A stretch of 64,000 nt of DNA from Armatimonadota bacterium (GTDB lineage Bacteria > Armatimonadota > SYMT01). Both the position numbers and the translations under genes were made by a program. Below, one piece after another: positions 11,991 through 55,065 of this stretch. The stretch is from NCBI GenBank assembly GCA_046292385.1, contig JBKBRF010000001.1, positions 191,305-255,304 of the forward strand, in the 5' to 3' direction. The stretch's first letter is position 1. Each line of letters begins with the position of its first letter. The notes below the pieces were generated by a model. The model had not been told where the DNA came from. It did not search any database and was given only the letters and a program-made list of their open reading frames with translations.

Positions 11991-13127
11991 ATGGAGCTGC
12001 CGGTAGTGGAGCAGGCGGGAGGGCCGGCGGCAGGACCGCCGCTGGTGGGACGGACGCGCGCGGAGCTGGAAGCGCTGGCCGTGGAGTTGGGGCAGCCGGC
12101 CTACCGCGGGCGGCAGGTGGCGCGCTGGCTCTACGCTCGCGGCGTGCGCTCCGTCGAGGAGATGACCGACCTCCCGGCCGCCTTCCGCGCGCGCCTGGCC
12201 GAAGCCGCGCCGGTCGGCCGCTCGGAGATCGTCCGCCGCCAGGCTTCCCGGGACGGCACGGTCAAAGTGCTGCTTCGGTACCCGGACGAACGGGAGATCG
12301 AGACGGTGGTGCTGCCGTATCCGGATCGCGTCTCCGTTTGCATCTCCAGCCAGGTCGGCTGCCCGGTCGGCTGCGTCTTCTGCGCCACCGCCACCATGGG
12401 CTTCGGGCGCAACCTGACGCCGGGCGAGCTGCTGGACCAGGTGCTCACCGCCCGGGAAGAGGCGCCCGGCGGGCGGCTCACCCACGTGGTGGTGATGGGG
12501 ATGGGCGAGCCGCTGCTGAACTACGAGAGCCTGGTGAAGGCGCTGCGGCTGATGCACGAGGAAGTAGGGCTCTCCTACCGGCACCTCACCGTCTCCACCT
12601 CCGGCCACGTGCCCGGGATCCGGCGGCTGGCGGAGGAGGGCCTGCCGGTCACGCTGGCGCTCTCCCTCCACGCGCCGAACGACCCGCTCCGGGCGGAGCT
12701 CATCCCGCTCTCCCGCAAGTGGGGGATCGACGATGTGATGGGGGCGGTCCGCGACTATCAGGAGCGCACCGGCCGCCGCGTGACGCTGGAGTACCTGCTG
12801 CTGGCGCGCGTGAACGACGAGCCGGAGCACGCGGAGCAGCTCGCCCGCCTCTGCCGCGGCATGATCACGCACGTCAACCTGATCCCGTGGAATCCGGCCG
12901 ACACCTTCACCCGGTTCGAAGCGCCCTCCGGCGCGCGCGTCCGCGCCTTCCGGTCGATCCTGGAGGGGCACGGCGTCACCGTGACGCAGCGGGTGGAGCG
13001 CGGCCAGGACATCGCCGCCGCCTGCGGGCAGCTCGCCGTCAAAGCCCGTCGGGAAGGGGGCGAGGAGATCGCCGTCGCCCCCCGCACCTTCGAAGACGTG
13101 TCGCCCGCGCTAGCAGAGAGCCCGTGA
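11991..13127 (+). CDS. rlmN: 23S rRNA m2A2503/tRNA methyltransferase (radical SAM)
   Basis: CISSQVGCPVGCVFC, MGMGEP, SLHA, NLIPWN, DIAAACGQL. Confidence 0.95.
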   Translation: MELPVVEQAGGPAAGPPLVGRTRAELEALAVELGQPAYRGRQVARWLYARGVRSVEEMTDLPAAFRARLAEAAPVGRSEIVRRQASRDGTVKVLLRYPDEREIETVVLPYPDRVSVCISSQVGCPVGCVFCATATMGFGRNLTPGELLDQVLTAREEAPGGRLTHVVVMGMGEPLLNYESLVKALRLMHEEVGLSYRHLTVSTSGHVPGIRRLAEEGLPVTLALSLHAPNDPLRAELIPLSRKWGIDDVMGAVRDYQERTGRRVTLEYLLLARVNDEPEHAEQLARLCRGMITHVNLIPWNPADTFTRFEAPSGARVRAFRSILEGHGVTVTQRVERGQDIAAACGQLAVKARREGGEEIAVAPRTFEDVSPALAESP

Positions 13128-13249
13128 GCGCGACCTTGCGCCGTTCCTGGGACAGGGCCAATCCGGCAGCTCCGCTAGAGCAACCTGAACTCCTGCTAGA
13201 ATACTCTGTGGCGCCGATTGACGGGACGGGGTCACGCCCGGTAGATCAC

Positions 13250-13471
13250 ATGGATTACAAGCAGATTCTCACACTTGAGCCAGGTAAGCGCAGCGGCAAG
13301 CCCTGCATTCGCGGGATGCGCATTACGGTCTATGACGTGCTGTCGTACCTCGCCGCCGGAATGACCCACGAGGAGCTACTCGCCGATTTCCCCTATCTCA
13401 CCGAGGACGACATCCGCGCCTGCCTCAGCTATGCTGCCGACCGCGAGAAGCACACGCTAGTCGCGGCATGA
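13250..13471 (+). CDS. DUF433 antitoxin (VapB45-like)
   Basis: PGKRSGKPCIRGMRITVYDVL...EELLADFPYLTEDDIRACLSYA; ATGA overlap with the next gene; TGcTAGAAT at 13194-13202 upstream. Confidence 0.92.
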   Translation: MDYKQILTLEPGKRSGKPCIRGMRITVYDVLSYLAAGMTHEELLADFPYLTEDDIRACLSYAADREKHTLVAA

Positions 13472-13800
13472 AGCTGTTATTCGACCAGAACCTCTCACCA
13501 CGGCTGGCGCCGCGTCTTGTCGACCTGTTCCCCGGCAGTTCCCACGTATCGCGCCACTCACTTGGCACGGCGGATGATCGGCAGATCTGGAGCTTTGCCC
13601 GTCAGCACGGCTTCACGCTGGTGACGAAGGACAGCGACTTCGATGATCTATCGTCGCTATTCGGGTTTCCGCCCAAGGTAGTCCGTGTCGGAATTGGCAA
13701 CTGCACCACGCGTCAGATCGAGGAGCTGATCCGGCGGCACTACTCTGCAATCGAGCAGTTCGAGGATGACGCCGAAGCAGGGGTGCTGGCCCTGTACTAA
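13468..13800 (+). CDS. DUF5615 PIN-like toxin (VapC45-like)
   Basis: MKLLFDQNLS, DDRQIW, LVTKDSDF, PPKVV, GNC. Confidence 0.92.
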   Translation: MKLLFDQNLSPRLAPRLVDLFPGSSHVSRHSLGTADDRQIWSFARQHGFTLVTKDSDFDDLSSLFGFPPKVVRVGIGNCTTRQIEELIRRHYSAIEQFEDDAEAGVLALY

Positions 13801-14047
13801 CTCGGCGGGGCGATCAGGACCTTCGGCGAAATGGACGACGGAGGTCGTCGCGCCCGACGCCCGGTAATGTTGCTCCCGGCGCGCTGGCGGCGAGTCCGAA
13901 ACACGTGGGCGGGAGCCCAAGCGGGTGGCCGGCTCCCTTACAGCCTCGGCTCGAGAACAGTGTCGCCCGGACGAGTTGCGCCGCAGCAATCCCCCCGATT
14001 CCGAGCAGCGCGGCGCGACTGCACTCCCGCCGCTTCTTTGCGTCCGC

Positions 14048-14545
14048 TCATGCCGAATGCCGGGCGATGAGGTGTCCGGTGATCGCCCCCGCGCCGGCGA
14101 AGAAGGGCGTCGTCAGCACCGGCAGCACCATGATCTGCGCAGCGAGGACTGGCGCGGGGACGGGCTGGCCGGTGAGGGAGCCCACCACGACGAAGCCGAC
14201 CATCGTGAGCACCGCGTGCGCCGCCCAGCTGATCGCCACTCCCAGCTGTGCGCCGCTCCACCGTCCCGCAGAGGGGAGCCGAACCAGCGGGCAATCCCGC
14301 AGCACGTTGCGCGTCGCCGCCCCGACCATCGCCCCGACGACGCTGAACGCGAACGCAATGACCATGATGATAGTCGAGAGCACCAACAGCTCGTCACGGC
14401 TCTCCGGAGGCCCGACCAGCAGCGCCAGCCCGCCGCCGAAGACCAGTCCCCACCCGGCCGCCACCGCCGCCCCGATGGAGGCGGACCGGTAAGGGCCGGG
14501 CAGACGGGGGAGCCGCTCGCTCAGGTGATCCGGCTTACCGTCCAT
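14048..14545 (-). CDS. Hypothetical membrane protein
   Basis: About four hydrophobic segments; overlaps the end of the upstream HD-domain gene. Confidence 0.55.
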   Translation of the reverse strand: MDGKPDHLSERLPRLPGPYRSASIGAAVAAGWGLVFGGGLALLVGPPESRDELLVLSTIIMVIAFAFSVVGAMVGAATRNVLRDCPLVRLPSAGRWSGAQLGVAISWAAHAVLTMVGFVVVGSLTGQPVPAPVLAAQIMVLPVLTTPFFAGAGAITGHLIARHSA

Positions 14546-15074
14546 GACCCTCCAGCCACCTGAGCCGCTCGTCGGCTCTCTGGGCGATCTCGGCGAGCAT
14601 GTCGTCGAGTGCCAGGTAAACACTCCACCTCTCCAGGCCGAGTTGCTCGGAGAGCCGAGTCGTAATCAGGTCCTCCAACTCCGGAATGCGGCAGCCTTTC
14701 CAGACCTTGTCCGCCAGCGCGACCAGTAGATCTTCGAGCGGACTCTCTGCGCCCCACTCGCCGTGCGAGCGGCAAAACCGAGCCAGACGGGCTGCAATGC
14801 CGAGCTCCAGAAGGAGCCGCTCTCCCTCGGCTTCGTGCCGCGTACCCGGCGCGGACAGCTCCTGCGGGTGTCGCACCTTGCCGAGGTCGTGGGTCGCCGC
14901 CCCGAAGAGAACTGCTTCCGTATCGAGCTCCAGCTCCGGCCACCGCGCGGAAAGCCCCGCCAGCAGCGCCGCCGCGACCTCATGCGTGACCGTCAGGTGC
15001 GCCATCAGTAGCGGCGGCGCACCGGTGCCGGTGAGCAGTTCCCGCGCTCGACTGGGCAGGGGGTGGAGTTTCAT
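14535..15074 (-). CDS. HD-domain phosphohydrolase-like protein
   Basis: AHL...AATHDLGK...HE...SH...LADKVWKG. Confidence 0.8.
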   Translation of the reverse strand: MKLHPLPSRARELLTGTGAPPLLMAHLTVTHEVAAALLAGLSARWPELELDTEAVLFGAATHDLGKVRHPQELSAPGTRHEAEGERLLLELGIAARLARFCRSHGEWGAESPLEDLLVALADKVWKGCRIPELEDLITTRLSEQLGLERWSVYLALDDMLAEIAQRADERLRWLEGHGR

Positions 15075-15145
15075 GACGCTCTCTCGCTTCACGGAGGGGT
15101 ATCCCGGTAGAATCGCCCTAGTTCTGAAACGGGGAGGGAACAGAG

Positions 15146-15352
15146 GTGGCGACTTCGATTGAGACACGGGAGCGAACTGGGGAACGACCGTTCGAATACC
15201 TGCGGGCGACACCGGAGGAGCGCGCACGGGTGCTGGAGGCGCTCTCACCGTTCGACTGTGAAGCGTGGCGGCGCGAAGTCACACCCTCGAGGCCCGAAGA
15301 GCTATTGGAGCTTGAGCGGTTCCTGGAGGAGCGTGAGGAAGACCGTCAGTGA
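15146..15352 (+). CDS. Small acidic hypothetical protein
   Basis: GTG start after GGAGGG; TAGAAT at 15108; 68 aa, helical and charged. Confidence 0.4.
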   Translation: MATSIETRERTGERPFEYLRATPEERARVLEALSPFDCEAWRREVTPSRPEELLELERFLEEREEDRQ

Positions 15353-15590
15353 GCTAAGCGCGCTGTTGCCCCGCGGCCCCAGCGGATGCGGTTCGGGGTC
15401 GGCTCCTCGGGAGCGGGGATCGGTTCAACTGCCTGGGGCATCACGGTCTCCTTAGTTCCATCTTACTCTGCCGAACCGCCCGCTACCTGCCGCCGGTCAC
15501 CGCGCAGGTCGGCGTGAGGGTGACACCCGTGCGCCGGGCCGGTATCCTCCTGTAGCCACTTCTTCCTGAAACCTTCCGCCATCCCGCAGT

Positions 15591-16739
15591 ATGGCTGTCT
15601 ATCTCGATTGCGCGGCCACTCCCCCGATCGACCCGCGCGTGCTCGAGCGGGTGGTAGCGTGCTTCCGCGAGGAGGTGGGGAACGCCGGCAGCCGGACGCA
15701 CGAGTACGGGGCGCGGGCGCGGCGAGTGGTGGAGCAGGCCCGGGACCAGGTCGCCGCCGCGGTCGGCGCGGCGCGGGGCGAGATCGTCTTTACCAGCGGC
15801 GCGACCGAGAGCAACAACCTGGCGATTCTGGGGCTGGCGGAGCACGGCCGGTGGGCCGGTCGCCGTCACCTGGTGAGTACGCAGGTCGAGCACCGGGCGG
15901 TGCTGGAGCCGCTGCAGGCGCTGGCGCGGTCCGGTTTCGAGCTTACGCTGGTGCCGCCGGACCCGGGCGGCCGGGTCGCGCCGGAGGCGGTCCGTGCGGC
16001 GGTGCGGCCGGAAACCCTGCTCGTCTCCGTGATGCAGGTGAACAACGAGACCGGCATCCGCCAGCCGGTGGGGGAGATCGCGGAGCTGCTGGGCGACCAT
16101 CCCGCCTACCTGCACGTCGACGCCGCGCAGGGGTTCGGTCTGGAGCCGGAGACGCTGCGGCACGCCCGGATCGACCTGGTCAGCTTGAGCGGCCACAAGG
16201 CTTATGGGCCCAAGGGAATCGGCGCGCTGGTGGCGCGGCGCCGGTCGGGGAAGCGGCCGCCGCTGGAGCCGCTGCTGCTGGGGGGCGGCCAGGAGCTGGG
16301 GCTGCGTCCCGGGACGCTCCCCGTGCCGCTGATCGCCGGCCTCGGCCTCGCCGCGGAGCTGGCTGCCGCGGAGGCGCTCCAGCGCCGGGAGCGGTGCCGC
16401 CGCTTCGGGGAGCGGCTCCTCCAGGCGCTCGCCCCGCTGGCGTCGGAGGTGACCGGCGACCCGGTCCACCGCGCGCCGCATATTCTCAACCTCGGCTTTC
16501 CGGGGCTTCCCGCGGAGGAGACCATCGAGGCGCTCGGCGAAGTGGTAGCGGTCTCGGACGGCGCCGCCTGCTCCTCCGGCAGCGAGACGTGCAGCCACGT
16601 CCTCGCCGCGATGGGGCTCCCGCCGGACCGGGCGGAGTGCGCCGTCCGCTGGAGCTGGTGCCACCTGACCGAGGAGCCGGACTGGGACCGGATAGTCCGG
16701 GTGCTGGACGAGCTGCGGTCTTCGGCGCGCGAGGGATGA
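15591..16739 (+). CDS. Cysteine desulfurase, IscS class I, DndA-like subfamily
   Basis: YLD, GNAGSRTHEYG, FTSGATESNN, HVDAAQ, SGHK (PLP Lys), RPGTLPVPLI, GAACSS (catalytic Cys), SHVLAAMG. Confidence 0.9.
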   Translation: MAVYLDCAATPPIDPRVLERVVACFREEVGNAGSRTHEYGARARRVVEQARDQVAAAVGAARGEIVFTSGATESNNLAILGLAEHGRWAGRRHLVSTQVEHRAVLEPLQALARSGFELTLVPPDPGGRVAPEAVRAAVRPETLLVSVMQVNNETGIRQPVGEIAELLGDHPAYLHVDAAQGFGLEPETLRHARIDLVSLSGHKAYGPKGIGALVARRRSGKRPPLEPLLLGGGQELGLRPGTLPVPLIAGLGLAAELAAAEALQRRERCRRFGERLLQALAPLASEVTGDPVHRAPHILNLGFPGLPAEETIEALGEVVAVSDGAACSSGSETCSHVLAAMGLPPDRAECAVRWSWCHLTEEPDWDRIVRVLDELRSSAREG

Positions 16740-16779
16740 GGGTATCCGAATCCGCTGGTAGGAGCTTCGCGGCCGGGCG

Positions 16780-16917
16780 GTTGAAACCGCGGCAACCACA
16801 GCACGTAGTTTTATCCCCCGGACGGGGGACTGCCTTCGCGGACTCAGCAGAGCCCAGTTCGGGCGTCCGGAGGACGCGTGGCCGCAGGCCGTCCAGCGAG
16901 GGATTTCAATCCCTCGC
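16780..16917. repeat. REP-like palindromic remnants
   Basis: GTTGAAACCGCGGCAAC at 16780 and the hairpin GCGAGGGATT-TC-AATCCCTCGC at about 16896-16917. Confidence 0.5.
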
Positions 16918-17001
16918 GACCCGCGGAGACTCATTACTGGCACGGTCGTGGTGGACAAACCCCACGCCGACCCGGCCGGCTCGATTAATTCGTAAGTAAG
17001 T

Positions 17002-17481
17002 ATGGAATCGCCCTCCGAGATCCGTTACCGGCGCTCCCGGTTCTCCACTCGTCTCCCCGTCGATCGTCGCTATACCTACTCCCACTTCTGGGTCGCGGAG
17101 GAGGCCCCCGGCGTCTGGAAGGTCGGCTTCACCCGCTTCGCCACGCGGATGCTCGGGGACTTCGTGGAGCTTGGCTTCCAGGTGGAGCCGGGCGACCTCG
17201 TCTCCGTCGGGCAGACGATCGGGTGGGTGGAAGGCTTCAAGGCGCTGACCGATCTCTACTGCGTGGTGGAGGGGGAGTTCCTGGGTGGAAATCCGGAGCT
17301 GGACCAGGACATCACGCTCTCGGACACGGATCCGTACGGCCGCGGCTGGCTCTACCGCGCCCGGGGCGTGCCGGATCGACAGAACGTGGACGTGGACGGC
17401 TACGTCAGACTTCTTGACCAGACGATCGACCGGATGCTCCAGACCTCTCCGGGGATGGGGCAGGATGAGGGGCGGGAATGA
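17002..17481 (+). CDS. Glycine cleavage H-like (lipoyl-carrier) protein
   Basis: YTYSHFW, VGFTRFA..LGD, VEGFKA (lipoyl-Lys position), NPEL...DPYGRGWL. Confidence 0.85.
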   Translation: MESPSEIRYRRSRFSTRLPVDRRYTYSHFWVAEEAPGVWKVGFTRFATRMLGDFVELGFQVEPGDLVSVGQTIGWVEGFKALTDLYCVVEGEFLGGNPELDQDITLSDTDPYGRGWLYRARGVPDRQNVDVDGYVRLLDQTIDRMLQTSPGMGQDEGRE

Positions 17482-18572
17482 GCCAGGCGCGCTACCTGAT
17501 GATCGGCGGCTTTCTCGGTGCCGGGAAGACGACCGCGGTGCTGCGCCTGGCACAGCGCCTCACCGACTCCGGCCTGCGGGTGGGGCTGATCACGAACGAC
17601 CAGAGCTTCGGCCTCGTCGACACCGCCACGCTCGGCGCGCACGGCTTCCCGGTGGAAGAGATCACCGGCGGCTGCTTCTGCTGTCGCTTCAACTCCCTCG
17701 TGACGGCGGCGGATCGACTGACCGAAGCGGCCCGGCCGGACGTCTTCATTGCAGAGCCGGTGGGGAGCTGCACCGATCTGAAGGCGACGGTCGACTACCC
17801 CCTGCGGCGCATGTACGGCGACCACTACTCGGTGGCGCCGCTCAGCGTGATGGTCGACCCGATCCGCGCGCTGCGGATCCTGGGGCTGGAGCCGGGGAAG
17901 TCGTTCTCGCCCAAGGTCACCTACATCTACGAGAAGCAGCTCGAGGAAGCGGACCTGATCGTCGTCAACAAGATTGACCTGCTCGAAGCGGACCGCGTGC
18001 AGACGCTGGTCCGCGCGCTGCGGGAGCGGTTCCCACGCTCCGAGGTGCTCTGCGTCTCTGCCCGCGAGGGCGCCGGGACGGACGAGTGGCTGGAGCGGCT
18101 CACCACCGGCTCCGCGCGAACGGCGGAGAGCATGGAGGTCGACTACGACCTCTACGCGGAAGGCGAAGCGCTGCTCGGTTGGCTTAACGCCACGCTCCGC
18201 CTGGAAGCCGACGACGAAGTGGACGGCAACGCGCTGCTGCTGCGCCTGGCGCAAGAGATCCAGGCGCGCGTGCAGGGAGAAGGCGGAGAGATCGCGCACC
18301 TGAAGCTGACGCTCACGCCGGACGAAGACGGCCGGGATCTGGGCGTGGTGAACGCGGTGCGCGGCGACCGCCCCGCGGAGGCGTCGCACCTCCTGCAGGA
18401 GCCGGTCGCCTCCGGAGAGGTCATCCTCAACCTCCGGGCCGAGGCCGATCCGGAGCGGCTGAAGGAGATCGTGGGAGAGGTCCTGCGAGGAGAAGCGGGC
18501 CTGAGCGTGGAGCACCTGGAGAGCTTTCGACCCGGACGCCCGGTGCCGACGCACAGACTCGCGGCGGTTTAG
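17478..18572 (+). CDS. G3E family P-loop GTPase (CobW/COG0523-like metallochaperone)
   Basis: GGFLGAGKTT, ITND, GGCFCC, EPVGSC, NKID; ATGA overlap. Confidence 0.88.
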   Translation: MSQARYLMIGGFLGAGKTTAVLRLAQRLTDSGLRVGLITNDQSFGLVDTATLGAHGFPVEEITGGCFCCRFNSLVTAADRLTEAARPDVFIAEPVGSCTDLKATVDYPLRRMYGDHYSVAPLSVMVDPIRALRILGLEPGKSFSPKVTYIYEKQLEEADLIVVNKIDLLEADRVQTLVRALRERFPRSEVLCVSAREGAGTDEWLERLTTGSARTAESMEVDYDLYAEGEALLGWLNATLRLEADDEVDGNALLLRLAQEIQARVQGEGGEIAHLKLTLTPDEDGRDLGVVNAVRGDRPAEASHLLQEPVASGEVILNLRAEADPERLKEIVGEVLRGEAGLSVEHLESFRPGRPVPTHRLAAV

Positions 18573-18593
18573 CTCCACCCCGGAAGCGGGTGG

Positions 18594-18747
18594 CGCGTAG
18601 TGCGTATTCCGTATTGCGTAGCGGCTCGCTGCGAACGCTTTGCGGAAGATCGTGCCGCGCGGGAGGCTTATTTAGGCGCCTCGCCCGGCAGGACGTATGG
18701 GAGAGCGGTGGGAGCATCCCGCTACGCAATACGCGATACGGAATACC
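18594..18747. repeat. Inverted pair of heptamer arrays (TGCGTAT-like)
   Basis: CGCGTAG TGCGTAT TCCGTAT TGCGTAG CGG (18594-18624) versus CCG CTACGCA ATACGCG ATACGGA ATACC (18719-18747). Confidence 0.8.
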
Positions 18748-18776
18748 AGATCGTGTTTGGAGACAGCAGTTCCGTC

Positions 18777-19127
18777 ATGCAGAACGCCCGGATACTCTAC
18801 TGCCACTGCGCCTACGCGCAGGTGGTGCCTAAAGCGGTGAAGGAAGAGGTGCTGCTCCGGCTCGCGGAGTCGGACGTGGCGTTCGACGCCGTGCCGGACC
18901 TCTGCGAGATGTCTGCGCGCAACGACCCGCGGCTGCAGCAGCTTGCGGGCGAAGACGCGCTGACGGTGGTCGCCTGCTACCCCCGCGCGGTGAAGTGGCT
19001 CTTCTCCGCGGGCGGAGCGGCGCTGCCGGAAGGCGCGGAGGTGCGGAACATGCGCGTGGAGAGCGCGGAAGAGGTGGTCGCCGCGGTCCTGGGCGAGCGC
19101 CGGGAGCCGGCGGAGGTCTCCCCATGA
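18777..19127 (+). CDS. Small Cys protein resembling the HdrA N-terminal Fe-S domain
   Basis: ILYCHC...DLC...VVACYPR...F...NMR parallels the HdrA pattern CHC...CS...VAACSPR...F...NIRE. Confidence 0.65.
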   Translation: MQNARILYCHCAYAQVVPKAVKEEVLLRLAESDVAFDAVPDLCEMSARNDPRLQQLAGEDALTVVACYPRAVKWLFSAGGAALPEGAEVRNMRVESAEEVVAAVLGERREPAEVSP

Positions 19128-19945
19128 CGACCGGCGCGCTCCGAGTGGTGCTCTACGAAGGCGAAGGCAGCCGCCCGCTGCCCTCGGACGATCGGTACGC
19201 AATCCTGCGGTCGCTCCTGGAGAAGGGGTACTCGGTGACGCGCTCGCTCCCGGGCGGCCGGGTCGGCGCGGCGGGCAGCGATCCGCTCCTGGTGCTCGGC
19301 GACTTCGAAGGACCAGAGCCGCCCACCGCCGAGGACGCCGCGGGCGCGGTGCCGGTGCAGGTACGCGGGATCGCGGAGGTGCCGGCAGAGCAGGTGGTCT
19401 CGCTGGTGGAGGAAGTGGGCCAGAGCCTGGAAGCGCCGAAGCCGGGCGGCTGGAAGCCGTGGTTCCCGGTGATCGACTACGACCGCTGCACCAACTGCAT
19501 GCAGTGCCTAAGCTTCTGCCTCTTCGACGTCTACGGCGTGAAAGACGGCAAGATCGACGTCCGCAACCAGAACCACTGCAAGACCGACTGCCCCGCCTGC
19601 TCCCGCGTCTGCCCGGAGGTGGCGATCCTCTTCCCGAAGTACCGCTCCGGCCCGATCAACGGCGACGAGATCAATGAAGAGGACCTGCGCCGGGAAGCGA
19701 TGAAGGTCGATATCTCCGCGCTCCTCGGCGGGGACATCTACCAGATGCTGCGGGACCGCAGTGAAAAGGCGAAGTCACGCTTTTCCAAGGAACGGGACGA
19801 GAGCCGCGCGCTCAAAGAGCGCATGCGCTGCCTCGCCCAGCTTCAGAAAGATCTCGACATCCCCCCGGAAGTGCTCGCCACCCTCCCCTCGGCGGAGCAG
19901 ATCCAGTCCCGCCTGGCAAACGCCGCGGAAGAAGGACAGGCCTGA
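19124..19945 (+). CDS. 2x[4Fe-4S] ferredoxin-domain protein
   Basis: WFPVIDYDRCTNCMQCLSFC and CKTDCPACSRVCP; ATGA overlap. Confidence 0.85.
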   Translation: MTTGALRVVLYEGEGSRPLPSDDRYAILRSLLEKGYSVTRSLPGGRVGAAGSDPLLVLGDFEGPEPPTAEDAAGAVPVQVRGIAEVPAEQVVSLVEEVGQSLEAPKPGGWKPWFPVIDYDRCTNCMQCLSFCLFDVYGVKDGKIDVRNQNHCKTDCPACSRVCPEVAILFPKYRSGPINGDEINEEDLRREAMKVDISALLGGDIYQMLRDRSEKAKSRFSKERDESRALKERMRCLAQLQKDLDIPPEVLATLPSAEQIQSRLANAAEEGQA

Positions 19946-19948
19946 CCG

Positions 19949-21139
19949 ATGATGGTGCAGTTCGCCCGCCGGATGATGACGGAGCCGGATCCCCGGCTCC
20001 TCTGGAAAATCGGCTACAACTTCGGCTTCAAGGGGATGCTCTCCGTCAACCGCTTCAAGAAGCGGCTCAAGCAGGGGATCCACTTCCCGCCGTTCCTCTT
20101 CATCTCGATCATCAATAGCTGCCAGCTCCGCTGCCAGGGCTGCTGGGTCGACGTCGCCTCCCCCCGCAAGATGATCACGCTGGAGGAGATGAACCGGATC
20201 ATCAACGACGCCAAGCGCCACGGGAACAGCTTCTTCGGCATCCTGGGCGGCGAGCCGTTCCTCCACCCGCAGCTTCTCGACATCCTGGCGGCCCACCCGG
20301 ACTGCTACTTCCAGATCTTCACCAACGGCCAGCTCATCACCGACGAGGTGGCGAAGGAGCTGCGCCGTCTCGGGAATGCGAGCCCGCTCATCAGCATCGA
20401 GGGCACCGAGATCGTCAGCGACGCGCGCCGCGGCCGGCTCAACGTGCTGAACAAGACGCTGGAAGGGCTGGCGAACTGCCGCAAGCACCGCCTGATCACC
20501 GGTGTGGCGACCAGCGTCTGCCAGACCAACATCGACCTGGTGAGCGAGTCGTGGCTCCGTAAGCTGATCGATCTTGGAGCCCACTACGCCTGGTTCCACA
20601 CCTATCGGGTAGTCGGCCCCGTTCCGCACTCGGAGCTGGCGCTCTCGCCGGAGCAGGTGCTGCAGGTGCGGCGGTTCGTCGTCGAGATGCGCAAGAAGCT
20701 CCCGATCGCGATCGTCGACGCCTACTGGGACGACAAGGGCGAAGCGCTCTGCCCCATGGCGACCGGCGTGAGCCACCACATCGGCCCCGGCGGCGACATC
20801 GAGCCGTGCCCGATCATCCAGTTCGCCCGGGAGAACATCCGGGACCGGGAGAGCCTCTACGAGACGCTCACCGGCTCCGAGTTCCTGCAGGACTTCCGCC
20901 GCACCGCCGCGAAGGCGACCCGCGGGTGCATCGTGCTGGAGCGCCCGGACCTGGTGCAGGAGCTGGTCGCCCGCCACGGCGCGCGAGACACCACCCAGCG
21001 CGGCACCGCGCTGGCGGAGATGGCGGCGCTGGAGCCGCGCACCAGCCAGCACAACCCCGGCAACGAGATTCCGGAAGACCACTGGGCCTACCGGTTCGCA
21101 AAGAAGCACTGGTTCTTCGGATTCGGAGCCTACACCTAA
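19949..21139 (+). CDS. Radical SAM protein with SPASM/Twitch-like C-terminus
   Basis: CQLRCQGC, LGGEP, FTNG, ISIEG, C-terminal CPMA...HIGPGGDIEPCP...GC. Confidence 0.9.
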   Translation: MMVQFARRMMTEPDPRLLWKIGYNFGFKGMLSVNRFKKRLKQGIHFPPFLFISIINSCQLRCQGCWVDVASPRKMITLEEMNRIINDAKRHGNSFFGILGGEPFLHPQLLDILAAHPDCYFQIFTNGQLITDEVAKELRRLGNASPLISIEGTEIVSDARRGRLNVLNKTLEGLANCRKHRLITGVATSVCQTNIDLVSESWLRKLIDLGAHYAWFHTYRVVGPVPHSELALSPEQVLQVRRFVVEMRKKLPIAIVDAYWDDKGEALCPMATGVSHHIGPGGDIEPCPIIQFARENIRDRESLYETLTGSEFLQDFRRTAAKATRGCIVLERPDLVQELVARHGARDTTQRGTALAEMAALEPRTSQHNPGNEIPEDHWAYRFAKKHWFFGFGAYT

Positions 21140-21220
21140 AAGCTAAAGGCTAAAGGCTAAAGGCTAAAGGCTAAAGGCTAAAGGCTAAAGGCTAAAGGCT
21201 AAAGGCTAAAGGCTAAAGGC
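21136..21220 (+). repeat. Tandem heptamer array CTAAAAG(CTAAAGG)11
   Basis: 11 perfect units plus 1 variant; the first unit contains the radical SAM TAA. Confidence 0.97.
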
Positions 21221-21237
21221 CTGCCTAACACCGATAG

Positions 21238-21336
21238 CTCCCCTCTCCTCGCAGGAGAGGGGCCGGGGGTGAGGCCGCGGTCGAATGCCTGGCTCTCGTG
21301 CACGCTGTCGGTCATCCTGAACGGAGTGAAGGATCT
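21238..21336. repeat. REP-like elements (CCCTCTCC hairpin family and GTCATCCTGA...GAAGGATCT type)
   Basis: 21253-21279 is the exact reverse complement of 29532-29558; GTCATCCTGAACGGAGTGAAGGATCT at 21311-21336. Confidence 0.7.
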
Positions 21337-21457
21337 CGGCAGCCGGATTGGGACGAGAAACGCATGAGGGTGAAGTGGTAGCGCCCCCGGCGAAGTGAGA
21401 GTCTTCCGGCAGAACCTGCCGAAAGCAGCAGAGACGCTACGAAAAGGGACCCCACGC

Positions 21458-23173
21458 ATGCAGCAGCTTCCGATATTGCAGCTTCCGCGCGCCGTGCCGC
21501 CGGAGCGAGAGCGCCAGCCGCAGGCGAACATTCCGCAAACCCGCGGCGAGCGGGAGAAGGCGAAGGAGCTGGCCGCCGCCTACGTGGAGAAGACGCGCCC
21601 GGTGACGCCGCTCTCCGCCGCGGAGCTGCGGGAGCACGCGGAGGCGTTCGTCCGCCAGTACGAGCTCTCCGGGGCCTACACCGACTACTACGGGGTGCTG
21701 CTGAACAACGAGGCGTGGCGGGAGCACCTGGCGGGCATCCCGTACGAGCGGCGGCTCCTGCTGCTGCCAAAGTGCCTGCGCGTGGAAGACAAGTGCCCCG
21801 CGCCGTTCGACGACTTCGGACTGCTCTGCAAGCGCTGCGGCCTCTGCTCCATCCAGGAGCTCCAGGAAGAGGCGGAGCGGCTCGGCTACGCCGTGCTGGT
21901 GGCGGAGGGCTCCGCGCTGGTGATGGCGATCATCCAGACCGGAAGGATCGACGCGATCGTCGGCGTGAGCTGCCTGAACGTGCTGGAGCGGGCCTTCCCG
22001 TATATGGAAGCCGCCGCCGTCCCCGGCATCGCGATCCCGCTGCTGCAGGATGACTGCAAAGACACCTCGGTCGACATGGAGTGGATCTGGGACGTGATCC
22101 ACCTGACCAGCGACGACCGCACGCGCCGGATGGACCTGGACGGGCTGCGGCGGCGGGTCGACGCCTGGTTCACCCCGGAGGCGCTGGCGGAGCTGCTCGG
22201 CCCCGCGGCGGGGGAGACCGACGAGATCGCCCGGGGCTGGCTCGCTCGCGCCGGCAAGCGGTGGCGGCCGTTCCTCACCGTCTGCGCCTGGAGCGCGCTG
22301 CAAGAGGACCCGAACGCGGAGCCGCCGGCCGACCTGCGCCGCATCGCTCTCGCGGTGGAGTGCTTCCACAAGGCGTCGCTGATCCACGACGACATCGAGG
22401 ACCAGGACGAGCGCCGCTACGGCGAGCGCACGCTCCACGAGGAGCACGGGGTGCCGGTGGCGCTGAACGTGGGCGACCTGCTCCTGGGCGAGGGCTACCG
22501 CCTCCTGGCGGAGTGCGAGGCGCCGGCGCCGGTCCGCTCGGAGATGCTGCGCCTGGCCGCCTCCGGCCACCGCACGCTCTGCCTGGGGCAGGGCGCGGAG
22601 CTGAGCTGGACCCGCGCGCCGCGGCCGCTGTCGTCGCTGGAAGTGCTCGACATCTTCCGTCGCAAGACCGCGCCCGCGTTCGAGGTCGCGCTGCGGCTCG
22701 GGGCGGTCTACGCCGGGGCCGGGCCGGAGGTGGCGGAGGTGCTGGCGCGCTACAGCGAGGCGCTCGGCATTGCCTACCAGATCCGCGACGACCTGAGCGA
22801 CCTGGAGAACCCGCAGGACGGCGACGACCTCGCCGCCGCGCGGCCGACGCTGCCGCTGGCCGTCGCGCTGGAGAAGTCGAAGAAGGACGACCGCGAGCTG
22901 CTGGAGGCGGCGTGGCGGCGGGAGGCGGTCGACCCGGAGGCGGTGCGCGCCGCGATCTCCCGGCTGCAGGCGGACGAGCGCTGCCGCGCGCTGCTCGACT
23001 CCTACAAGGAAGAGGCGGTGCGCTCGCTGGTGGAGCTGGAGCATCCGAGCCTGAAGGGGCTGCTCCGCCGCGTGATCAGCAAGATCTTCAGCATCGAGGT
23101 AAAGGGCTGGTGCAGTGAGTTTGAGGCTCGAAATGCTGCAGGTCGCGAGGCTGGCACCGCGGCTGCTGTCTGA
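21458..23173 (+). CDS. DUF116-like Cys-rich domain fused to a trans-polyprenyl diphosphate synthase
   Basis: N-part LLLPKCLR..C..CKRCGLC..GVSC..IPL..C.DTSVD; C-part GKRWRP, LIHDDIED (FARM), RRY, GQ, KT, QIRDDLSD (SARM). Confidence 0.85.
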   Translation: MQQLPILQLPRAVPPERERQPQANIPQTRGEREKAKELAAAYVEKTRPVTPLSAAELREHAEAFVRQYELSGAYTDYYGVLLNNEAWREHLAGIPYERRLLLLPKCLRVEDKCPAPFDDFGLLCKRCGLCSIQELQEEAERLGYAVLVAEGSALVMAIIQTGRIDAIVGVSCLNVLERAFPYMEAAAVPGIAIPLLQDDCKDTSVDMEWIWDVIHLTSDDRTRRMDLDGLRRRVDAWFTPEALAELLGPAAGETDEIARGWLARAGKRWRPFLTVCAWSALQEDPNAEPPADLRRIALAVECFHKASLIHDDIEDQDERRYGERTLHEEHGVPVALNVGDLLLGEGYRLLAECEAPAPVRSEMLRLAASGHRTLCLGQGAELSWTRAPRPLSSLEVLDIFRRKTAPAFEVALRLGAVYAGAGPEVAEVLARYSEALGIAYQIRDDLSDLENPQDGDDLAAARPTLPLAVALEKSKKDDRELLEAAWRREAVDPEAVRAAISRLQADERCRALLDSYKEEAVRSLVELEHPSLKGLLRRVISKIFSIEVKGWCSEFEARNAAGREAGTAAAV

Positions 23174-23999
23174 TTCCGCCGAGCTCGTCGCCGACTTCCT
23201 GCGCTCCCAGCTCCACCCGGACGGCGGCTTCTGCGACCGCGCCGGGGAGAGCGACCTCTACTACACCGTCTTCGGCCTGGAGGGCCTGCTCGCTCTCCAG
23301 GCCGACCTGCCGGTCTCGCAGATCGCCGCCTACCTGCGCCGCTTCGGCGACGGGGACGGCCTCGACTTCATCCATCTCACCTGCCTCGCCCGCGGCTGGG
23401 CCGCGCTGCCGCTGCCGCTGCGCGCGGAGGTGCCGAGAGACGCCATCGCCGCCCGGCTGGAGACGCACCGCTCCGCGGACGGCGGCTATCACACGGAGCC
23501 AGGGACGGAGCGGGGCACCGTCTACGGCTGCTTCATGGCGCTCGGCGGCTACCAGGACCTGGGACTGCCGCTGCCCGATCCGGAGGGGGTGCTGCGGTGT
23601 GTCCGCAGCCTGCGCGCGTTCGACGGCGGCTACGCCAACCAGGAAGAGGTCCCGATGGGGCTCACTCCCTCCACGGCGGCGGCGGCGACCCTGCTCCGCC
23701 ACCTGGGCGAGCCGGCGGAGCCGGCGCTGGCGGAGTGGCTGCTGGCGCGCTGCCTGCCGGAAGGCGGCTTCTTCGCGACGCCGGTCGCGCCGATCCCCGA
23801 CCTCCTCTCCACCGCCACCGCGCTTCACGCCCTCTCCGGCCTGAAAGCGGACTACGAGGCGGTGCGGGAGCCGTGCCTCGACTTCGTCGACAGCCTCTGG
23901 ACCAACCGCGGCGCCTTCTACGGCAACTGGACCGACGACTGCGCCGACTGCGAGTACACCTACTACGGCCTCCTCTCGCTGGGGCATCTGAGCCTGTGA
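23115..23999 (+). CDS. Prenyltransferase/squalene-oxidase-repeat barrel protein (GGTase-beta-like)
   Basis: Repeated QW-like motifs (QLHPDGGF, RSADGGY, RAFDGGY, LPEGGF), SDLYYT, DCEYTYYG; alternative ATG at 23133. Confidence 0.8.
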   Translation: MSLRLEMLQVARLAPRLLSDSAELVADFLRSQLHPDGGFCDRAGESDLYYTVFGLEGLLALQADLPVSQIAAYLRRFGDGDGLDFIHLTCLARGWAALPLPLRAEVPRDAIAARLETHRSADGGYHTEPGTERGTVYGCFMALGGYQDLGLPLPDPEGVLRCVRSLRAFDGGYANQEEVPMGLTPSTAAAATLLRHLGEPAEPALAEWLLARCLPEGGFFATPVAPIPDLLSTATALHALSGLKADYEAVREPCLDFVDSLWTNRGAFYGNWTDDCADCEYTYYGLLSLGHLSL

Positions 24000-24009
24000 G
24001 GGGCCGCGC

Positions 24010-25857
24010 GTGATCGACCTCCGTACCCTCGACGAGACCCTCGCCGCCTCCCGCGCGCGCCTGCTCTCGGAGCGGAACGCCGCGGGCCACTGGGAGGGGG
24101 AGCTCTCCTCCAGCGCCCTCTCCACCGCCACCGCCCTCTTCGCCCTGCACCTGGCGGGGCGTGTCCGCCCGGACGATCCGGACTACTCCGAGCTGGTGCG
24201 GGGTGGGGTCCGCTGGCTGACGGAGCACCGGAACGCGGACGGCGGCTGGGGCGACACCACTCTGAGCGTGAGCAACATCAGCACCACGGCGCTCTGCTGG
24301 GCCGCGCTCTCCGCCGTGCTCGGTCCGGACGCCGAGCCGGTGCGGGCCGCGGAAGCCTGGCTCCAGCAGGCCGCCGGCTCGACGGAGCCCGCGCCGCTCG
24401 CCCGCGCCATCGCAGACCGGTACGGGAAAGACCGCACCTTCTCCGTCCCGATCCTCACGATGTGCGCGCTCGCCGGCCGGCTGGGGAAAGGCGTCGAGGG
24501 CTGGCGCCACGTGCCGCACCTGCCGTTCGAGCTCGCCGCCTGCCCGCACGACTGGTTCCGCTGGCTCAAGCTCCCGGTCGTGAGCTACGCCCTCCCGGCG
24601 CTGATCGCCATCGGCCAGGCGGGGCACTACCACCGGCCGTCGTGGAACCCGGCCGGGCGCCTGGTCCGTGCGCTGGCGAAGCCGCGGACGCTGCGGGTGC
24701 TGGAAGAGATCCAGCCGGAAGGGGGCGGCTTCCTGGAGGCGACCCCGCTGACCAGTTTCGTCGCGATGAGCCTGCTTGGAGCGGGGGAGGGGCGGCAGCC
24801 GGTGGTGACCCGCTGCCTGGAGTTCCTCGTCCGCTCCGTACGTCCCGACGGAAGCTGGCCGATCGACACCAATCTCGCCACCTGGGTCACCACGCTCTCC
24901 GTGAACGCGCTCGCCGCTGGCGATGCGGTGGAGAGCGCGCTGGGAGACGACGCCGGCACCCTCCTCGCCTGGCTGCTGCGCCAGCAGTACCGGGAGGTGC
25001 ACCCCTACACCCGCGCGGCGCCGGGCGGCTGGGCCTGGACCGACCTCCCCGGCGGCGTCCCGGACGCGGACGACACGCCCGGAGCGCTCCTGGCGCTGCG
25101 CCACCTCGGTCCGCCGACACCGGAGGTGCGCTCCGCAGCGGACGCCGGGGTCACCTGGCTCCTCGACCTCCAGAACGCCGACGGCGGGATGCCGACCTTC
25201 TGCCGCGGCTGGGGAGCGCTCCCGTTCGACCGCAGCGGGGCAGACCTCACCGCCCACGCGCTGCTCGCCTGGAACACGTGGCTGCCCGATCTTTCGCCTG
25301 CGGTAGCCGCGCGGGTTCGGCAGGCGATCCCCGCCGCGCTCCGCTACCTCGCCCGGGAACAGCGCCCCGACGGCGCCTGGCTCCCGCTCTGGTTCGGCAA
25401 CCAGCACGCCCACGATGATGCCAACCCGACCTACGGCACCGCCCGCGTGCTGATCGCCCTGGGTGCGCTCGATCCGGCGCGCTATCCGGAAGTCCGCACC
25501 CTCTCCGACCCGGCGGTCCGCTGGCTCCGGCAGGCCCAGAACCCCGACGGAAGCTGGGGCGGAGAGCGGGGCGTCCCCGGCTCCATCGAAGAGACCGCCC
25601 TCGGCGTCCATGCGCTTGCGGTATCCCCCGTCACGCCGGAAAGCGCGGCAGCCCTGGAGCGAGGCGCTGCATGGCTGATCGAGCAAACAGACGGCGGCAA
25701 GAGCTTCCCCGCGTCTCCGATCGGCTTCTACTTCGCCCGCCTCTGGTACTGGGAGCGTCTCTACCCCCTCATCTTCTCCGTCGCCGCCCTCGGCGCCGCG
25801 CGAAAGGCGCTCGGTAAGGGGAGCGTTCCCGAAACGGAGAACAAGACGGATGGGTAA
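24010..25857 (+). CDS. Class II terpene cyclase, squalene-hopene cyclase-like
   Basis: HWEGELSSS, QW motifs (RNADGGWG, QNADGG, QRPDGAW, QNPDGSWG), catalytic PDADDT (DxDD), GFYFARLWY. Confidence 0.88.
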   Translation: MIDLRTLDETLAASRARLLSERNAAGHWEGELSSSALSTATALFALHLAGRVRPDDPDYSELVRGGVRWLTEHRNADGGWGDTTLSVSNISTTALCWAALSAVLGPDAEPVRAAEAWLQQAAGSTEPAPLARAIADRYGKDRTFSVPILTMCALAGRLGKGVEGWRHVPHLPFELAACPHDWFRWLKLPVVSYALPALIAIGQAGHYHRPSWNPAGRLVRALAKPRTLRVLEEIQPEGGGFLEATPLTSFVAMSLLGAGEGRQPVVTRCLEFLVRSVRPDGSWPIDTNLATWVTTLSVNALAAGDAVESALGDDAGTLLAWLLRQQYREVHPYTRAAPGGWAWTDLPGGVPDADDTPGALLALRHLGPPTPEVRSAADAGVTWLLDLQNADGGMPTFCRGWGALPFDRSGADLTAHALLAWNTWLPDLSPAVAARVRQAIPAALRYLAREQRPDGAWLPLWFGNQHAHDDANPTYGTARVLIALGALDPARYPEVRTLSDPAVRWLRQAQNPDGSWGGERGVPGSIEETALGVHALAVSPVTPESAAALERGAAWLIEQTDGGKSFPASPIGFYFARLWYWERLYPLIFSVAALGAARKALGKGSVPETENKTDG

Positions 25858-26123
25858 CCGTTACTCGTCATCTGTCGCCCATCGGGCGTTTTGGCACGAC
25901 CACCGAGCCGCAGTCCGCCAACCGCCCTGGATATACCCGGCCACGGACATCCGAGGCGCACACGCAAGGATGTCCCCCTGGCAGCGAAGAAAAGCTCATC
26001 CGCGGGTTTGAGGCTGAGGATGATCGCCTCAAGAAGACGCTATAGCGTCACTCCGAAGCCCGTATTGGAGCCGTAGGTCGAAGACGCGGAGCCGTCGGGC
26101 GTTGAAGTCGCGAGAGGTGCGAT

Positions 26124-26390
26124 ATGGCTGGAAAATTCTTAGGACGTGACGCAATCATCGACACCATCAAGAGCGAGCAGCGGACTAACGCGATTCGGAA
26201 GCGGAGTGGGCTGACAAGGCACCCGGTCCGTGTTACCTCGTGCGGTTGCCCGGATCCCGCGTGCGGCGCATTCCATGTCATCGAGACCGACCGGCTAATC
26301 CCCACGCCAGAGGAGGCGGTAGCCCGGCTGGTAGATGATAATCGCAGGCGCAAGCCGATCAAGATTCATCGAAAGCACGAAGGGCGCTGA
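26124..26390 (+). CDS. Small basic hypothetical protein with a CGCPDPAC..FH motif
   Basis: GAGGTG RBS; 88 aa. Confidence 0.5.
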   Translation: MAGKFLGRDAIIDTIKSEQRTNAIRKRSGLTRHPVRVTSCGCPDPACGAFHVIETDRLIPTPEEAVARLVDDNRRRKPIKIHRKHEGR

Positions 26391-26707
26391 TTAGAGTGGA
26401 CGGGATCATTCACGATGAACAGACCCGCTGGCCCCGGAGCTTTACGCGGCCAGCGTAGCTCGCAGTCCACGGCGTTCCGACAGATGCCGCCTCGGACGCC
26501 CAGGGCCCCCGCGAGATCGCTGCGGCTGCAGTTTGAACGACCACTGCTGTCGGCCCTCGCGCTGTGCCATGGGGGCTCGCCTGGTCCTCGGGATAGCTCC
26601 GACCTGGAGAAGGAGTAGGAGTAGGAGCTGAGGCCGTTGGCTGCCTCCTCCCCCTCATCCCCGTTCCCCATCCCCACATCTCCTTTTCTTACACGCTCTG
26701 GGTTCGT

Positions 26708-26737
26708 TTGACTTCGTTCTGAGCCACCGAGTATACT
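26708..26737 (+). promoter_or_regulatory. Candidate sigma-70 promoter of ffh
   Basis: TTGACT-18 nt-TATACT, 32 nt before the ffh ATG. Confidence 0.6.
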
Positions 26738-26769
26738 GGTCGGGTTTGCCGGTGGACCGGCGCGACACC

Positions 26770-28113
<1,344 letters not shown>

Positions 28114-54586: not shown

Positions 54587-55052
54587 AGGCAGAAGTAAGA
54601 AGGCAGAAGGCAGAAGGACCGTGACGGAGACTGCTACGTGATCCCAGGTGGCAGTGGTGAGCGCGATCTCCACGGACGTACAAAGCGGTATGCGCTGGAG
54701 ATTATCCGGCTTTGCGGGCGCTTGCCCAGGACCAGCGTTGCGCAGGTCCTGGGCAAGCAGCTACTTCGTTCGGGAACGAATCCCGGGGCGCAGTATCGGG
54801 AAGCGCAGCGGTCCCGGACTCCGGCGGAGTTCGTGAGCAAGCTGGGAGTGGCTCTTCAGGAATTGGAAGAGACCGGGTATTGGTTGGAGTTGTTGACGGA
54901 GAGCGGCGTAGTCCCGCCCGCCGAAACCGAGCGGCTTGTCACGGAGACACGTGAGCTGACCGCCATTTTCGTCACGATAGTCCGCAGAGCGAAGGCCCGC
55001 GACTGAGCTGGTTCGGATCTTTTGCCTTCTGCCTTTTGACTTTTGCCTTTTG
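54583..55052. mobile_element. Four-helix-bundle cassette bounded by inverted heptamer arrays (mobility inferred only)
   Basis: Left GTAAAGG CAGAAGT AAGAAGG CAGAAGG CAGAAGG (54583-54617); right TCTTTTG CCTTCTG CCTTTTG ACTTTTG CCTTTTG (55018-55052); codon style differs from the flanking genes. Confidence 0.6.
54638..55006 (+). CDS. Four helix bundle protein (23S rRNA IVS protein/Avd-like family)
   Basis: LP...LGKQLLRSGT..GAQYREA.R.R..AEFVSKL..ALQELEET.YWLELL; start uncertain. Confidence 0.88.
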   Translation: MIPGGSGERDLHGRTKRYALEIIRLCGRLPRTSVAQVLGKQLLRSGTNPGAQYREAQRSRTPAEFVSKLGVALQELEETGYWLELLTESGVVPPAETERLVTETRELTAIFVTIVRRAKARD

Positions 55053-55065
55053 GACGAGGTGTACG

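Follow-up and report, generated by a model that had tools for sequence, protein, structure and literature searches.

At positions 15591-25857 of the window, by which we mean the whole 64,000-nucleotide stretch of contig JBKBRF010000001.1 that was analysed, nine genes (g1-g9) follow one another on the + strand of a host genome of 7.0 Mb and 68% GC. We lean, with limited confidence, towards reading these genes as an operon-like unit for a predicted squalene-independent cyclic terpenoid pathway that would depend on iron-sulfur (Fe-S) and radical chemistry. The reading draws on the recurrence of the same genes in the same order across phyla, on a class II terpene cyclase that stands apart from the squalene-hopene cyclases (SHCs), and on catalytic motifs that are kept across the cluster (DxDD, both DDxxD motifs, CX3CX2C, the H-protein Lys and CxCC). 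The nine genes are as follows, with Pfam scores and, where given, the cut-offs of the models.

15591..16739, + strand: g1, class I cysteine desulfurase (DndA/NifS/IscS-like); PF00266 (Aminotran_5), 223.6 bits
17002..17481, + strand: g2, GcvH paralogue with a lipoyl-type Lys; PF01597 (GCV_H), 65.5 bits
17478..18572, + strand: g3, COG0523/CobW-type G3E GTPase; PF02492 (cobW/HypB/UreG), 84.5 bits, cut-off 20.7
18777..19127, + strand: g4, small 4-Cys flavodoxin-like protein of 116 aa, partner domain of the ferredoxin; no Pfam or NCBIfam match
19124..19945, + strand: g5, 2x[4Fe-4S] ferredoxin with N- and C-terminal regions of its own; both Cys motifs invariant
19949..21139, + strand: g6, radical S-adenosylmethionine (SAM) enzyme with a partial SPASM/Twitch-like C-terminal region; PF04055, 59 bits, cut-off 29.5
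21395..23173, + strand: g7, DUF116 (Cys-rich) fused to a trans-prenyl diphosphate synthase (PPS); PF01976 (DUF116), 123.3 bits, cut-off 25; PF00348 (polyprenyl_synt), 156.1 bits, cut-off 27
23115..23999, + strand: g8, single-domain prenyltransferase-type alpha/alpha toroid without DxDD; PF00432 (Prenyltrans), 53 bits, cut-off 26.5
24010..25857, + strand: g9, divergent two-domain class II (DxDD) terpene cyclase; PF13243 (SQHop_cyclase_C), 110.1 bits, cut-off 26.1; PF13249 (SQHop_cyclase_N), 68.2 bits, cut-off 26.2

The genes are tightly packed: g2/g3 and g4/g5 each overlap by 4 nt and g7/g8 by 59 nt, gaps of 3 nt and 10 nt separate g5/g6 and g8/g9, and the spacer between g3 and g4 measures 204 nt. 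A first-pass annotation of this DNA had described nine co-oriented, overlapping or nearly abutting genes, which is an accurate description, and the matches listed above agree with its labels for g1 (cysteine desulfurase), g2 (GcvH-like protein with an intact Lys), g3 (CobW-type GTPase), g5 (ferredoxin with two 4Fe-4S motifs), g7 (DUF116-polyprenyl synthase), g8 (prenyltransferase barrel) and g9 (DxDD class II cyclase). Neither Pfam and NCBIfam nor the fold searches backed its label 'HdrA-N-like' for g4, and of 'radical SAM-SPASM' for g6 the first half stood, the second corresponding to a partial motif.

Recurrence of the nine genes across genomes

An alignment of g5 from the window and four relatives was scanned against one genome per species, which returned at least 599 pattern-matching stretches and at least 553 confirmed loci. 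The locus analysis covers the best 80 of these at least 553 loci, many of them cut by contig ends, in which g5 is 54-67% identical (best segment) with matches across nearly the whole protein. They were distributed over Planctomycetota (30), Verrucomicrobiota (26), Acidobacteriota (16), Abditibacteriaceae (2) and Hydrogenedentota (2), with one locus each from Chthonomonadales, Haliangiales and Bacteroidales and one unclassified, which makes at least eight phyla overall. When the nine proteins were compared with the 80 loci by tblastn, g5 was found in 80, g4 in 76, g3 in 63, g2 and g6 in 62 each, g7 in 60, g8 in 48, g1 in 35 and g9 in 34.

The counts are sharper for the 38 loci in which the contig extends at least 5 kb upstream and at least 7 kb downstream of g5 (full-flank loci). 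All nine genes were present in conserved order in 19 of these and g2-g8 in seven more, so the genes on which the first-pass annotation had based a single system do co-occur in other genomes. Taken singly, g4 was found in 38/38 full-flank loci, g7 in 36, g2, g6 and g8 in 34 each, g3 in 31 and an orthologue of g1 (at least 40% identity) in 20, with any desulfurase match in 24; g9 was adjacent in 23 and located elsewhere in the genome in others. All-against-all clustering of 1333 open reading frames (ORFs) returned only nine recurrent families, which are g1-g9, the next family being present in six loci. Given that only these nine recur, the boundaries of the cluster appear correctly drawn, and the recurrence of the arrangement across phyla is far beyond what chance would give. 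These observations support the conclusion that g1-g9 function together as a single conserved unit.

Co-location of two independent modules, g1-g5 as a general Fe-S, redox and sulfur-relay unit and g6-g9 as a terpenoid unit, is very improbable as an alternative. Some Verrucomicrobiota do have g1-g5, or g4-g5 alone, beside unrelated genes (ATP synthase, kinases, MoxR), and in three of five scattered Verrucomicrobiota genomes g7 stands alone within about ±8 kb. Yet each of these five genomes still carries orthologues of g6, g8 and g9 (51-68% identity) on other contigs (5/5), and four of them carry g7 elsewhere, the fifth being a fragmented assembly. The two halves also keep company among 40 Planctomycetota relatives, where g9 orthologues were found in six genomes from five families and the ferredoxin core of g5 (E <= 1e-20) was confined to the same six; DUF116 was present in five of the six, the sixth genome being 80% complete, and in none of the other 34. 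Moreover, the fixed order g4-g5-radical SAM-g7, which spans the supposed border, recurs across phyla. In a relative from the same family (G005), g1-g8 lie together and g9 is on another contig.

The class II cyclase and the question of squalene

The DADD motif of g9 aligns with DVDD of the A. acidocaldarius SHC (1gsz), and the surrounding motif, GGVPDaDDTpGA, is kept in 32 g9 sequences. The scores of g9 are far under the curated SHC cut-offs (94.4 versus 431.1 bits for TIGR01507 and 127.9 versus 322.7 bits for TIGR01787). A quick maximum-likelihood tree with 43 rows grouped 37 g9-type cyclases and split them from six Planctomycetota SHCs, including that of this genome, with a Shimodaira-Hasegawa-like approximate likelihood ratio (SH-aLRT) support of 100. 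Judged by its sequence, g9 is not an ordinary SHC. The cyclases of the variant clusters described below and of locus L111 were basal among the g9-type cyclases in this quick tree. Those of Abditibacteriaceae, Hydrogenedentota, Acidobacteriota and Planctomycetota were intermixed, which suggests that the cluster moved horizontally between phyla.

As stated in the first-pass annotation, the window contains no SQS_PSY (squalene/phytoene synthase, PF00494) and no GcvT gene. Other contigs of this genome hold two SQS_PSY genes and two GcvT-family genes, together with a bona fide SHC that scores 491 bits, a canonical GcvH at 148 bits and two further prenyl synthases. Given these ordinary counterparts, the cyclase, H protein and synthase of the cluster are extra, dedicated copies. 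In addition, two open frames in other parts of the genome, each about 1570 aa long (G000 C3:126063-126341 and C9:12108-12383), contain a short SQHop_cyclase_C-like stretch of 36-37 bits and resemble large toroid-repeat proteins.

If g9 were nevertheless a second squalene cyclase, the cluster would be an accessory hopanoid-type pathway in which g7 boosts farnesyl diphosphate (FPP) and the radical SAM enzyme tailors a triterpenoid in the manner of HpnH, HpnP or HpnR. The size and two-domain build of g9 are those of an SHC, hpn clusters pair a cyclase with radical SAM enzymes according to the accessible part of a 2026 review (PMC13459092), and PF00494 genes are present in several carriers: two each in this genome, G005, G008 and G036, one in G031, and some in all five Verrucomicrobiota carriers. 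However, no PF00494 gene and no second cyclase match were found in G019 (96% complete) or G024 (95% complete), both of which hold g9, the DUF116-PPS and the ferredoxin core, and squalene is therefore unlikely as the general substrate. With this absence in two of six carrier genomes, squalene supply is not a general companion of the system. The SQS_PSY family was also not recurrent in the 80 loci, and the low SHC scores, the separate clade and the bona fide SHC elsewhere in the genome point the same way. We regard the hopanoid-type explanation as quite improbable.

The prenyl synthase g7 and the toroid g8

Both DDxxD motifs of g7 (D332, D333, D336 and D465, D466, D469) were invariant in 36 sequences, and the nearest PDB entries to the synthase domain are geranylgeranyl diphosphate (GGPP) and FPP synthases. 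By general chain-length rules, from which no conclusion is drawn here, the small residues before the first DDxxD would allow products of C20 or longer. The gene is the third PPS of this genome. The DUF116 domain contains seven conserved Cys, and its structure model is flavodoxin-like, with a mean predicted local distance difference test score (pLDDT) of 68.7 that drops below 50 in the Cys loop; its best fold match, to a receiver domain (Z 8.0), is generic. The modelled fold agrees with an HHpred result in the accessible part of Makarova et al. 2015 (PMC5898192), where DUF116/arCOG02078 is described as a Cys-rich, flavodoxin-like, predicted metal-binding domain with a proposed role in electron transfer and where a DUF116-polyprenyl synthetase fusion is reported for Pirellula staleyi (Psta_0175). 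That paper was the sole mention of the fusion found in the literature searches.

The closest solved relative of g8 is the beta subunit of RabGGTase, a weak match (E 5e-5) whose alignment spans the repeat motifs only, and no alpha-subunit-like family was recurrent in the related loci. Rare single-record fusions of g8 to g9-like and to PPS proteins were seen, which may be gene-calling artefacts. A complex prediction for g7 and g8 gave a score of 0.00, which counts neither for nor against binding.

Since the alpha/alpha toroid fold is common to non-cyclase proteins and g9 has a weak TED_complement match, it may be asked whether the toroids are terpene enzymes at all; g8 and g9 would otherwise bind another ligand, with the PPS making precursors of quinones or carrier lipids. 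We consider this scarcely credible, given that DxDD and its flanking motif are kept in the 32 g9 sequences, that two other PPS genes are present in the genome, and that g7 and g8 overlap with g9 following in 23/38 full-flank loci.

A ferredoxin in two halves, g4 and g5

Four Cys of g4 (C9, C11, C43 and C67) were invariant in 53 sequences. The AlphaFold2 model (pLDDT 86) shows a four-stranded flavodoxin-like domain, for which Foldseek found no match in the PDB at E <= 1e-3; in a wide fold search the best match was PurE (Z 7.8), a generic flavodoxin/Rossmann likeness. With generic fold matches only, the label 'HdrA-N-like' is neither confirmed nor excluded. A profile comparison of g4 with the g5 alignment did not show a relationship between the two (probability 0.3). 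The g4 domain was found in 141 proteins (E <= 1e-8); among the 120 listed, most are about 284-340 aa long and about two thirds have a Fer4-family Pfam match, and an Atlas search gave the same lead. Given that the g4-domain proteins are mostly ferredoxin fusions, g4 and g5 are two halves of one ferredoxin. Seven of the 53 g4 members match PF11823 (Se_S_carrier) weakly, with E values above 0.02.

The radical SAM enzyme and variant clusters

The CX3CX2C motif of g6 (C58, C62 and C65) is conserved. SPASM domains have a seven-Cys motif for two auxiliary clusters; the C-terminal region of g6 has CX13GX4C and one further conserved Cys, C327, and there was no match to the Pfam SPASM model (PF13186) at E <= 0.01, while some SPASM-family models align on g6 up to about residue 320. 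The best PDB match is the thioether-forming SkfB (E 1.8e-9). In NCBIfam, matches to peptide, haem and other radical SAM families were equally good, and g6 was under every curated cut-off. Paralogues of g6 (31-35% identical) in small Planctomycetota genomes lie in unrelated gene contexts and gave no clue to its chemistry. In two such genomes of 45% GC, two radical SAM-SPASM genes are adjacent (L124 4856-7764 and L125 6263-9130); one of the two is 34-35% identical to g6, and the neighbours are a MiaB-like gene, mutS and an iron-dependent repressor.

In two loci (L054 and L111), the position between g5 and g7 is occupied by a 504-aa B12-domain-like radical SAM enzyme in place of g6. Both loci otherwise hold g2-g5 and g7, and L111 also g8 and g9. 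The best family match of the alternative enzyme is TIGR04013 (6e-17) and the second-best is MiaB/RimO. When both kinds are counted, 35/38 full-flank loci have a radical SAM gene at this position. A reduced cluster without g1-g4 was found in G008 (L023) and G019 (L025), consisting of a ferredoxin with the same core, a B12-domain-like radical SAM enzyme of 504-506 aa, a cyclase, a DUF116-PPS and a beta-propeller, and in G008 also a short g8-like stretch (53 aa, E 7.6e-5). The finding that a different radical SAM family can take the place of g6, and does so beside the ferredoxin and cyclase of the reduced clusters, indicated that a radical SAM enzyme is needed there.

The beta-propeller gene (PQQ_2/BamB-like) adjoins the g9-type cyclase in G005, G008 and G019 (L021 1893-3275, L023 10952-12394 and L025 1287-2684) and is absent from the window. 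Possibly it serves the system as an accessory in certain lineages only.

Putative sulfur, carrier and metal genes

The best NCBIfam match of g1 is DndA (TIGR03235, 446.2 bits, under the cut-off of 480), followed by IscS (332 bits) and NifS (325 bits). The SxHK motif for pyridoxal phosphate and the catalytic Cys of the C-terminal AAC were kept in 25 g1 sequences, and no dnd genes were recurrent beside g1 in the ORF clustering of related loci. For g3, the Walker A motif, GGCFCC (CxCC) and NKxD were kept in 61 sequences; the protein is under every equivalog cut-off, with 43.2 versus 332.1 bits for CobW proper (TIGR02475).

The score of g2 against the curated GcvH model (TIGR00527) was 67.2 bits, under the cut-off of 115.85. 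Its conserved Lys aligns with the Lys in the ESVKA stretch of the E. coli H protein, which we take to be the lipoyl site, and this Lys, within EGFKA, was kept in at least 95% of 63 g2 sequences.

These properties of g2 bear on an alternative in which the product is carrier-bound or protein-linked, the Lys arm of g2 being the acceptor or shuttle for sulfur from g1, and g8 joining the prenyl group to a carrier, protein or cofactor. Consistent with it are the retention of the Lys, the presence of g2 in 34/38 full-flank loci, the lack of any transmembrane (TM)-quality hydrophobic segment in the nine proteins and of a recurrent transporter, and the relationship of g8 to beta subunits of protein geranylgeranyltransferases. 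Two single records (P0001 and P0002) in which g1 and g2 are fused also fit, and may be gene-calling artefacts. On the other hand, no enzyme that could load an H protein, whether ligase or transferase, was recurrent in the loci, a conserved Cys is absent from the g2 family (63 sequences), L023 and L025 do without g2, and the match of g8 to prenyltransferase beta subunits is the weak, repeat-only alignment described above, in which the Zn-binding Asp/Cys/His triad of such subunits was not identified. A product of this kind is accordingly rated as unlikely.

Proposed pathway and points that weigh against it

In the pathway that we favour, the squalene-independent one, the PPS half of g7 would make an all-trans prenyl diphosphate, its nearest relatives being C15-C20 synthases, and g9 would cyclise the prenyl chain by protonation at the conserved DxDD, with the toroid g8 as a putative accessory subunit for substrate binding or transfer. 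An unactivated carbon of the terpenoid would then be functionalised by g6, or in some lineages by the B12-domain-like radical SAM enzyme, and we would favour formation of a C-S over a C-C bond. The g4/g5 ferredoxin would give low-potential electrons to the radical SAM enzyme and to the predicted Fe-S DUF116 domain, where the prenyl substrate would be reduced. The products of g1, g2 and g3 would supply sulfur and metal, either for the building or repair of roughly 6-7 clusters or, in the case of sulfur, for the product itself.

Sulfur chemistry is weakly hinted at by the DndA-like g1, the likeness of g6 to SkfB, the MiaB/RimO-like alternative radical SAM enzyme, the Se_S_carrier matches of g4, the lipoyl-type carrier and the g1-g2 fusions. 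A more specific version of the pathway would make g2 a swinging-arm carrier, with sulfur from the DndA-like desulfurase passing over the lipoyl-type arm and being joined by the radical SAM enzyme to a cyclised prenyl group, which would yield either a cyclic terpenoid containing sulfur or a protein or cofactor modified by a terpenoid. We hold this version to be tentative and on the doubtful side. That the carrier and sulfur genes make the system categorically new is a real though minor possibility.

Several points weigh against the favoured pathway. Every chemical step is drawn from the families of the proteins and the linkage of their genes. None of the sulfur hints is strong, with E values of 1e-9 or worse for the relatives of the radical SAM enzyme, and g6 itself is equally near to peptide, haem and other families and has neither a curated nor a SPASM match. 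Given that g1-g3 are absent from the variants L023 and L025, these genes are not needed for the terpenoid chemistry itself, and given that the cyclase is non-adjacent in 15/38 full-flank loci and g1 is missing from 18/38, the core may be smaller than nine genes. Related genomes are not independent, and the 6/6 versus 0/34 distribution of the ferredoxin core among the Planctomycetota therefore overstates the statistics and is to be read as a pattern only. The spread over phyla is likewise taken from the submitters' record titles, mostly of metagenome bins, with labels that are unchecked.

Other features of the locus and its surroundings

Two further features were recorded in or beside the cluster.

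15520..15548, + strand: sigma-70-like promoter match just upstream of g1, GTGACA-17-TATCCT, 9/12, a consensus match only
18604..18746, strand not assigned: inverted repeat in the g3-g4 spacer, 17-nt arms, 94% complementary, 109 nt apart

The inverted repeat has a third, overlapping copy, is unique to this spacer within the window, and such matches were found in 0/100 shuffles; a regulatory hairpin and a small repeat element are both conceivable. No terminator-like sites were found on the + strand within 14500-26800, which is weak evidence. A scan of 13000-27000 against Rfam (E <= 1) gave no riboswitch clue, the sole match being a sub-threshold Guanidine-III riboswitch-like sequence at 13943-14019 (23.2 bits against a gathering score of 36, E 0.26) that is probably due to chance.

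The cluster is flanked by housekeeping genes, with rlmN and sodA-type genes upstream and ffh, rpsP, rimM and trmD downstream. The 890-nt interval between g9 and ffh (25858-26745) contains no ORF with a coding-type GC content at third codon positions (GC3) and no Rfam match, and a promoter-like site for ffh lies at 26708-26737. Upstream of the cluster, a 191-aa ORF on the - strand (14048-14623) has several hydrophobic segments and no Pfam match and is not recurrent in the related loci. An ORF of 1779 aa with strong coding GC3 is located at 55036-60375.

Significance

Among the biosynthetic loci predicted in Planctomycetota, Verrucomicrobiota and Acidobacteria, terpene clusters are the most frequent kind, and to our knowledge few of them have known products. 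The present system is sharply delimited, with exactly nine recurrent families, and widespread, with at least 553 confirmed loci in species representatives. Within it a class II cyclase is joined by a ferredoxin and a radical SAM enzyme as well as by a lipoyl-type carrier, a metallochaperone and a desulfurase, and we found no characterised terpenoid pathway with such a combination. Solving the cluster would give a function to DUF116, to the families of g4 and g8, for which curated models are lacking, and to a deeply branching group of SHC-like cyclases; it might also bring to light a new lipid biomarker or cofactor in bacteria that abound in soil and fresh water, and it would show whether sulfur is inserted by radical chemistry when terpenoids are made. 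If g2 is a swinging arm and sulfur is joined by the radical SAM enzyme, several hundred species from at least eight phyla would share a chemistry for which there is as yet no description.

Comparison with known systems

Full-text literature searches, with subscription journals and supplements outside their reach, found no description of the gene set, in agreement with the earlier statement that no characterised pathway with it was known. The lipid-modifying radical SAM enzymes covered by the accessible part of the 2026 review (PMC13459092) are Tes, Mss, Gms, GrsA/B, Gmm, Cds, HpnH, HpnJ, HpnP/R, Jaw5 and ladderane candidates, and none of these, as described there, belongs to a gene set like g1-g9. 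Radical SAM enzymes of SPASM or B12-type architecture do act on isoprenoid lipids, as far as the accessible parts of two sources go (PMC13459092; 10.1101/2025.10.20.683597). The archaeal Tes and Gms (SPASM) and GrsA (B12-type), whose architectures parallel the two kinds found at the g6 position, functionalise unactivated isoprenoid carbons (accessible part of PMC13459092; listed abstract). The archaeal enzymes act on membrane tetraether lipids, whereas the g6-type is bacterial, has no TM segment and is linked to a cyclase, and no specific sequence relationship was seen. The archaeal DUF116 proteins have two TM helices where g7 has none, and the surrounding gene set is not described in the accessible part of that study (PMC5898192).

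A close parallel in gene content is the hopanoid hpn/shc cluster, in which isoprenoid supply, a DxDD class II cyclase and tailoring radical SAM enzymes (HpnH, HpnJ, HpnP/R) are likewise encoded together. As described in the accessible part of the review (PMC13459092), hpn clusters differ in having no ferredoxin, 4-Cys protein, H-protein paralogue, COG0523 GTPase, desulfurase, DUF116 or extra toroid. The cluster and the 80 loci, for their part, contain no HpnC/D/E or Sqs gene, g9 is far under the SHC cut-offs and in a clade of its own, and the genome has its own SHC. With the DndA system of DNA phosphorothioation the likeness lies in g1, whose best curated match is DndA at 446.2 bits; the score is under the cut-off, and dnd neighbours do not recur.

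In lipoyl synthesis by LipA on GcvH, an auxiliary-cluster radical SAM enzyme, a Lys carrier of the H protein and desulfurase-derived sulfur act in one process, and candidate counterparts of all three are found in g1-g9. The present system differs in that g6 has no LipA-family match, no octanoyl or lipoyl transferase is recurrent, g2 is under the GcvH cut-off, and there is linkage to terpenoid enzymes. Finally, g9 has weak PDB matches to 7xq4 (E 2.6e-12) and 6vpt (E 2.4e-7), which we take to be bacterial class II sesqui- and diterpene cyclases. Where such cyclases stand next to a prenyl synthase, the plan is the same, namely a two-domain DxDD cyclase acting on the product of a dedicated short-chain synthase; the g1-g9 cluster departs from it in that no class I synthase partner recurs and that Fe-S, radical SAM and sulfur genes are present beside the cyclase.

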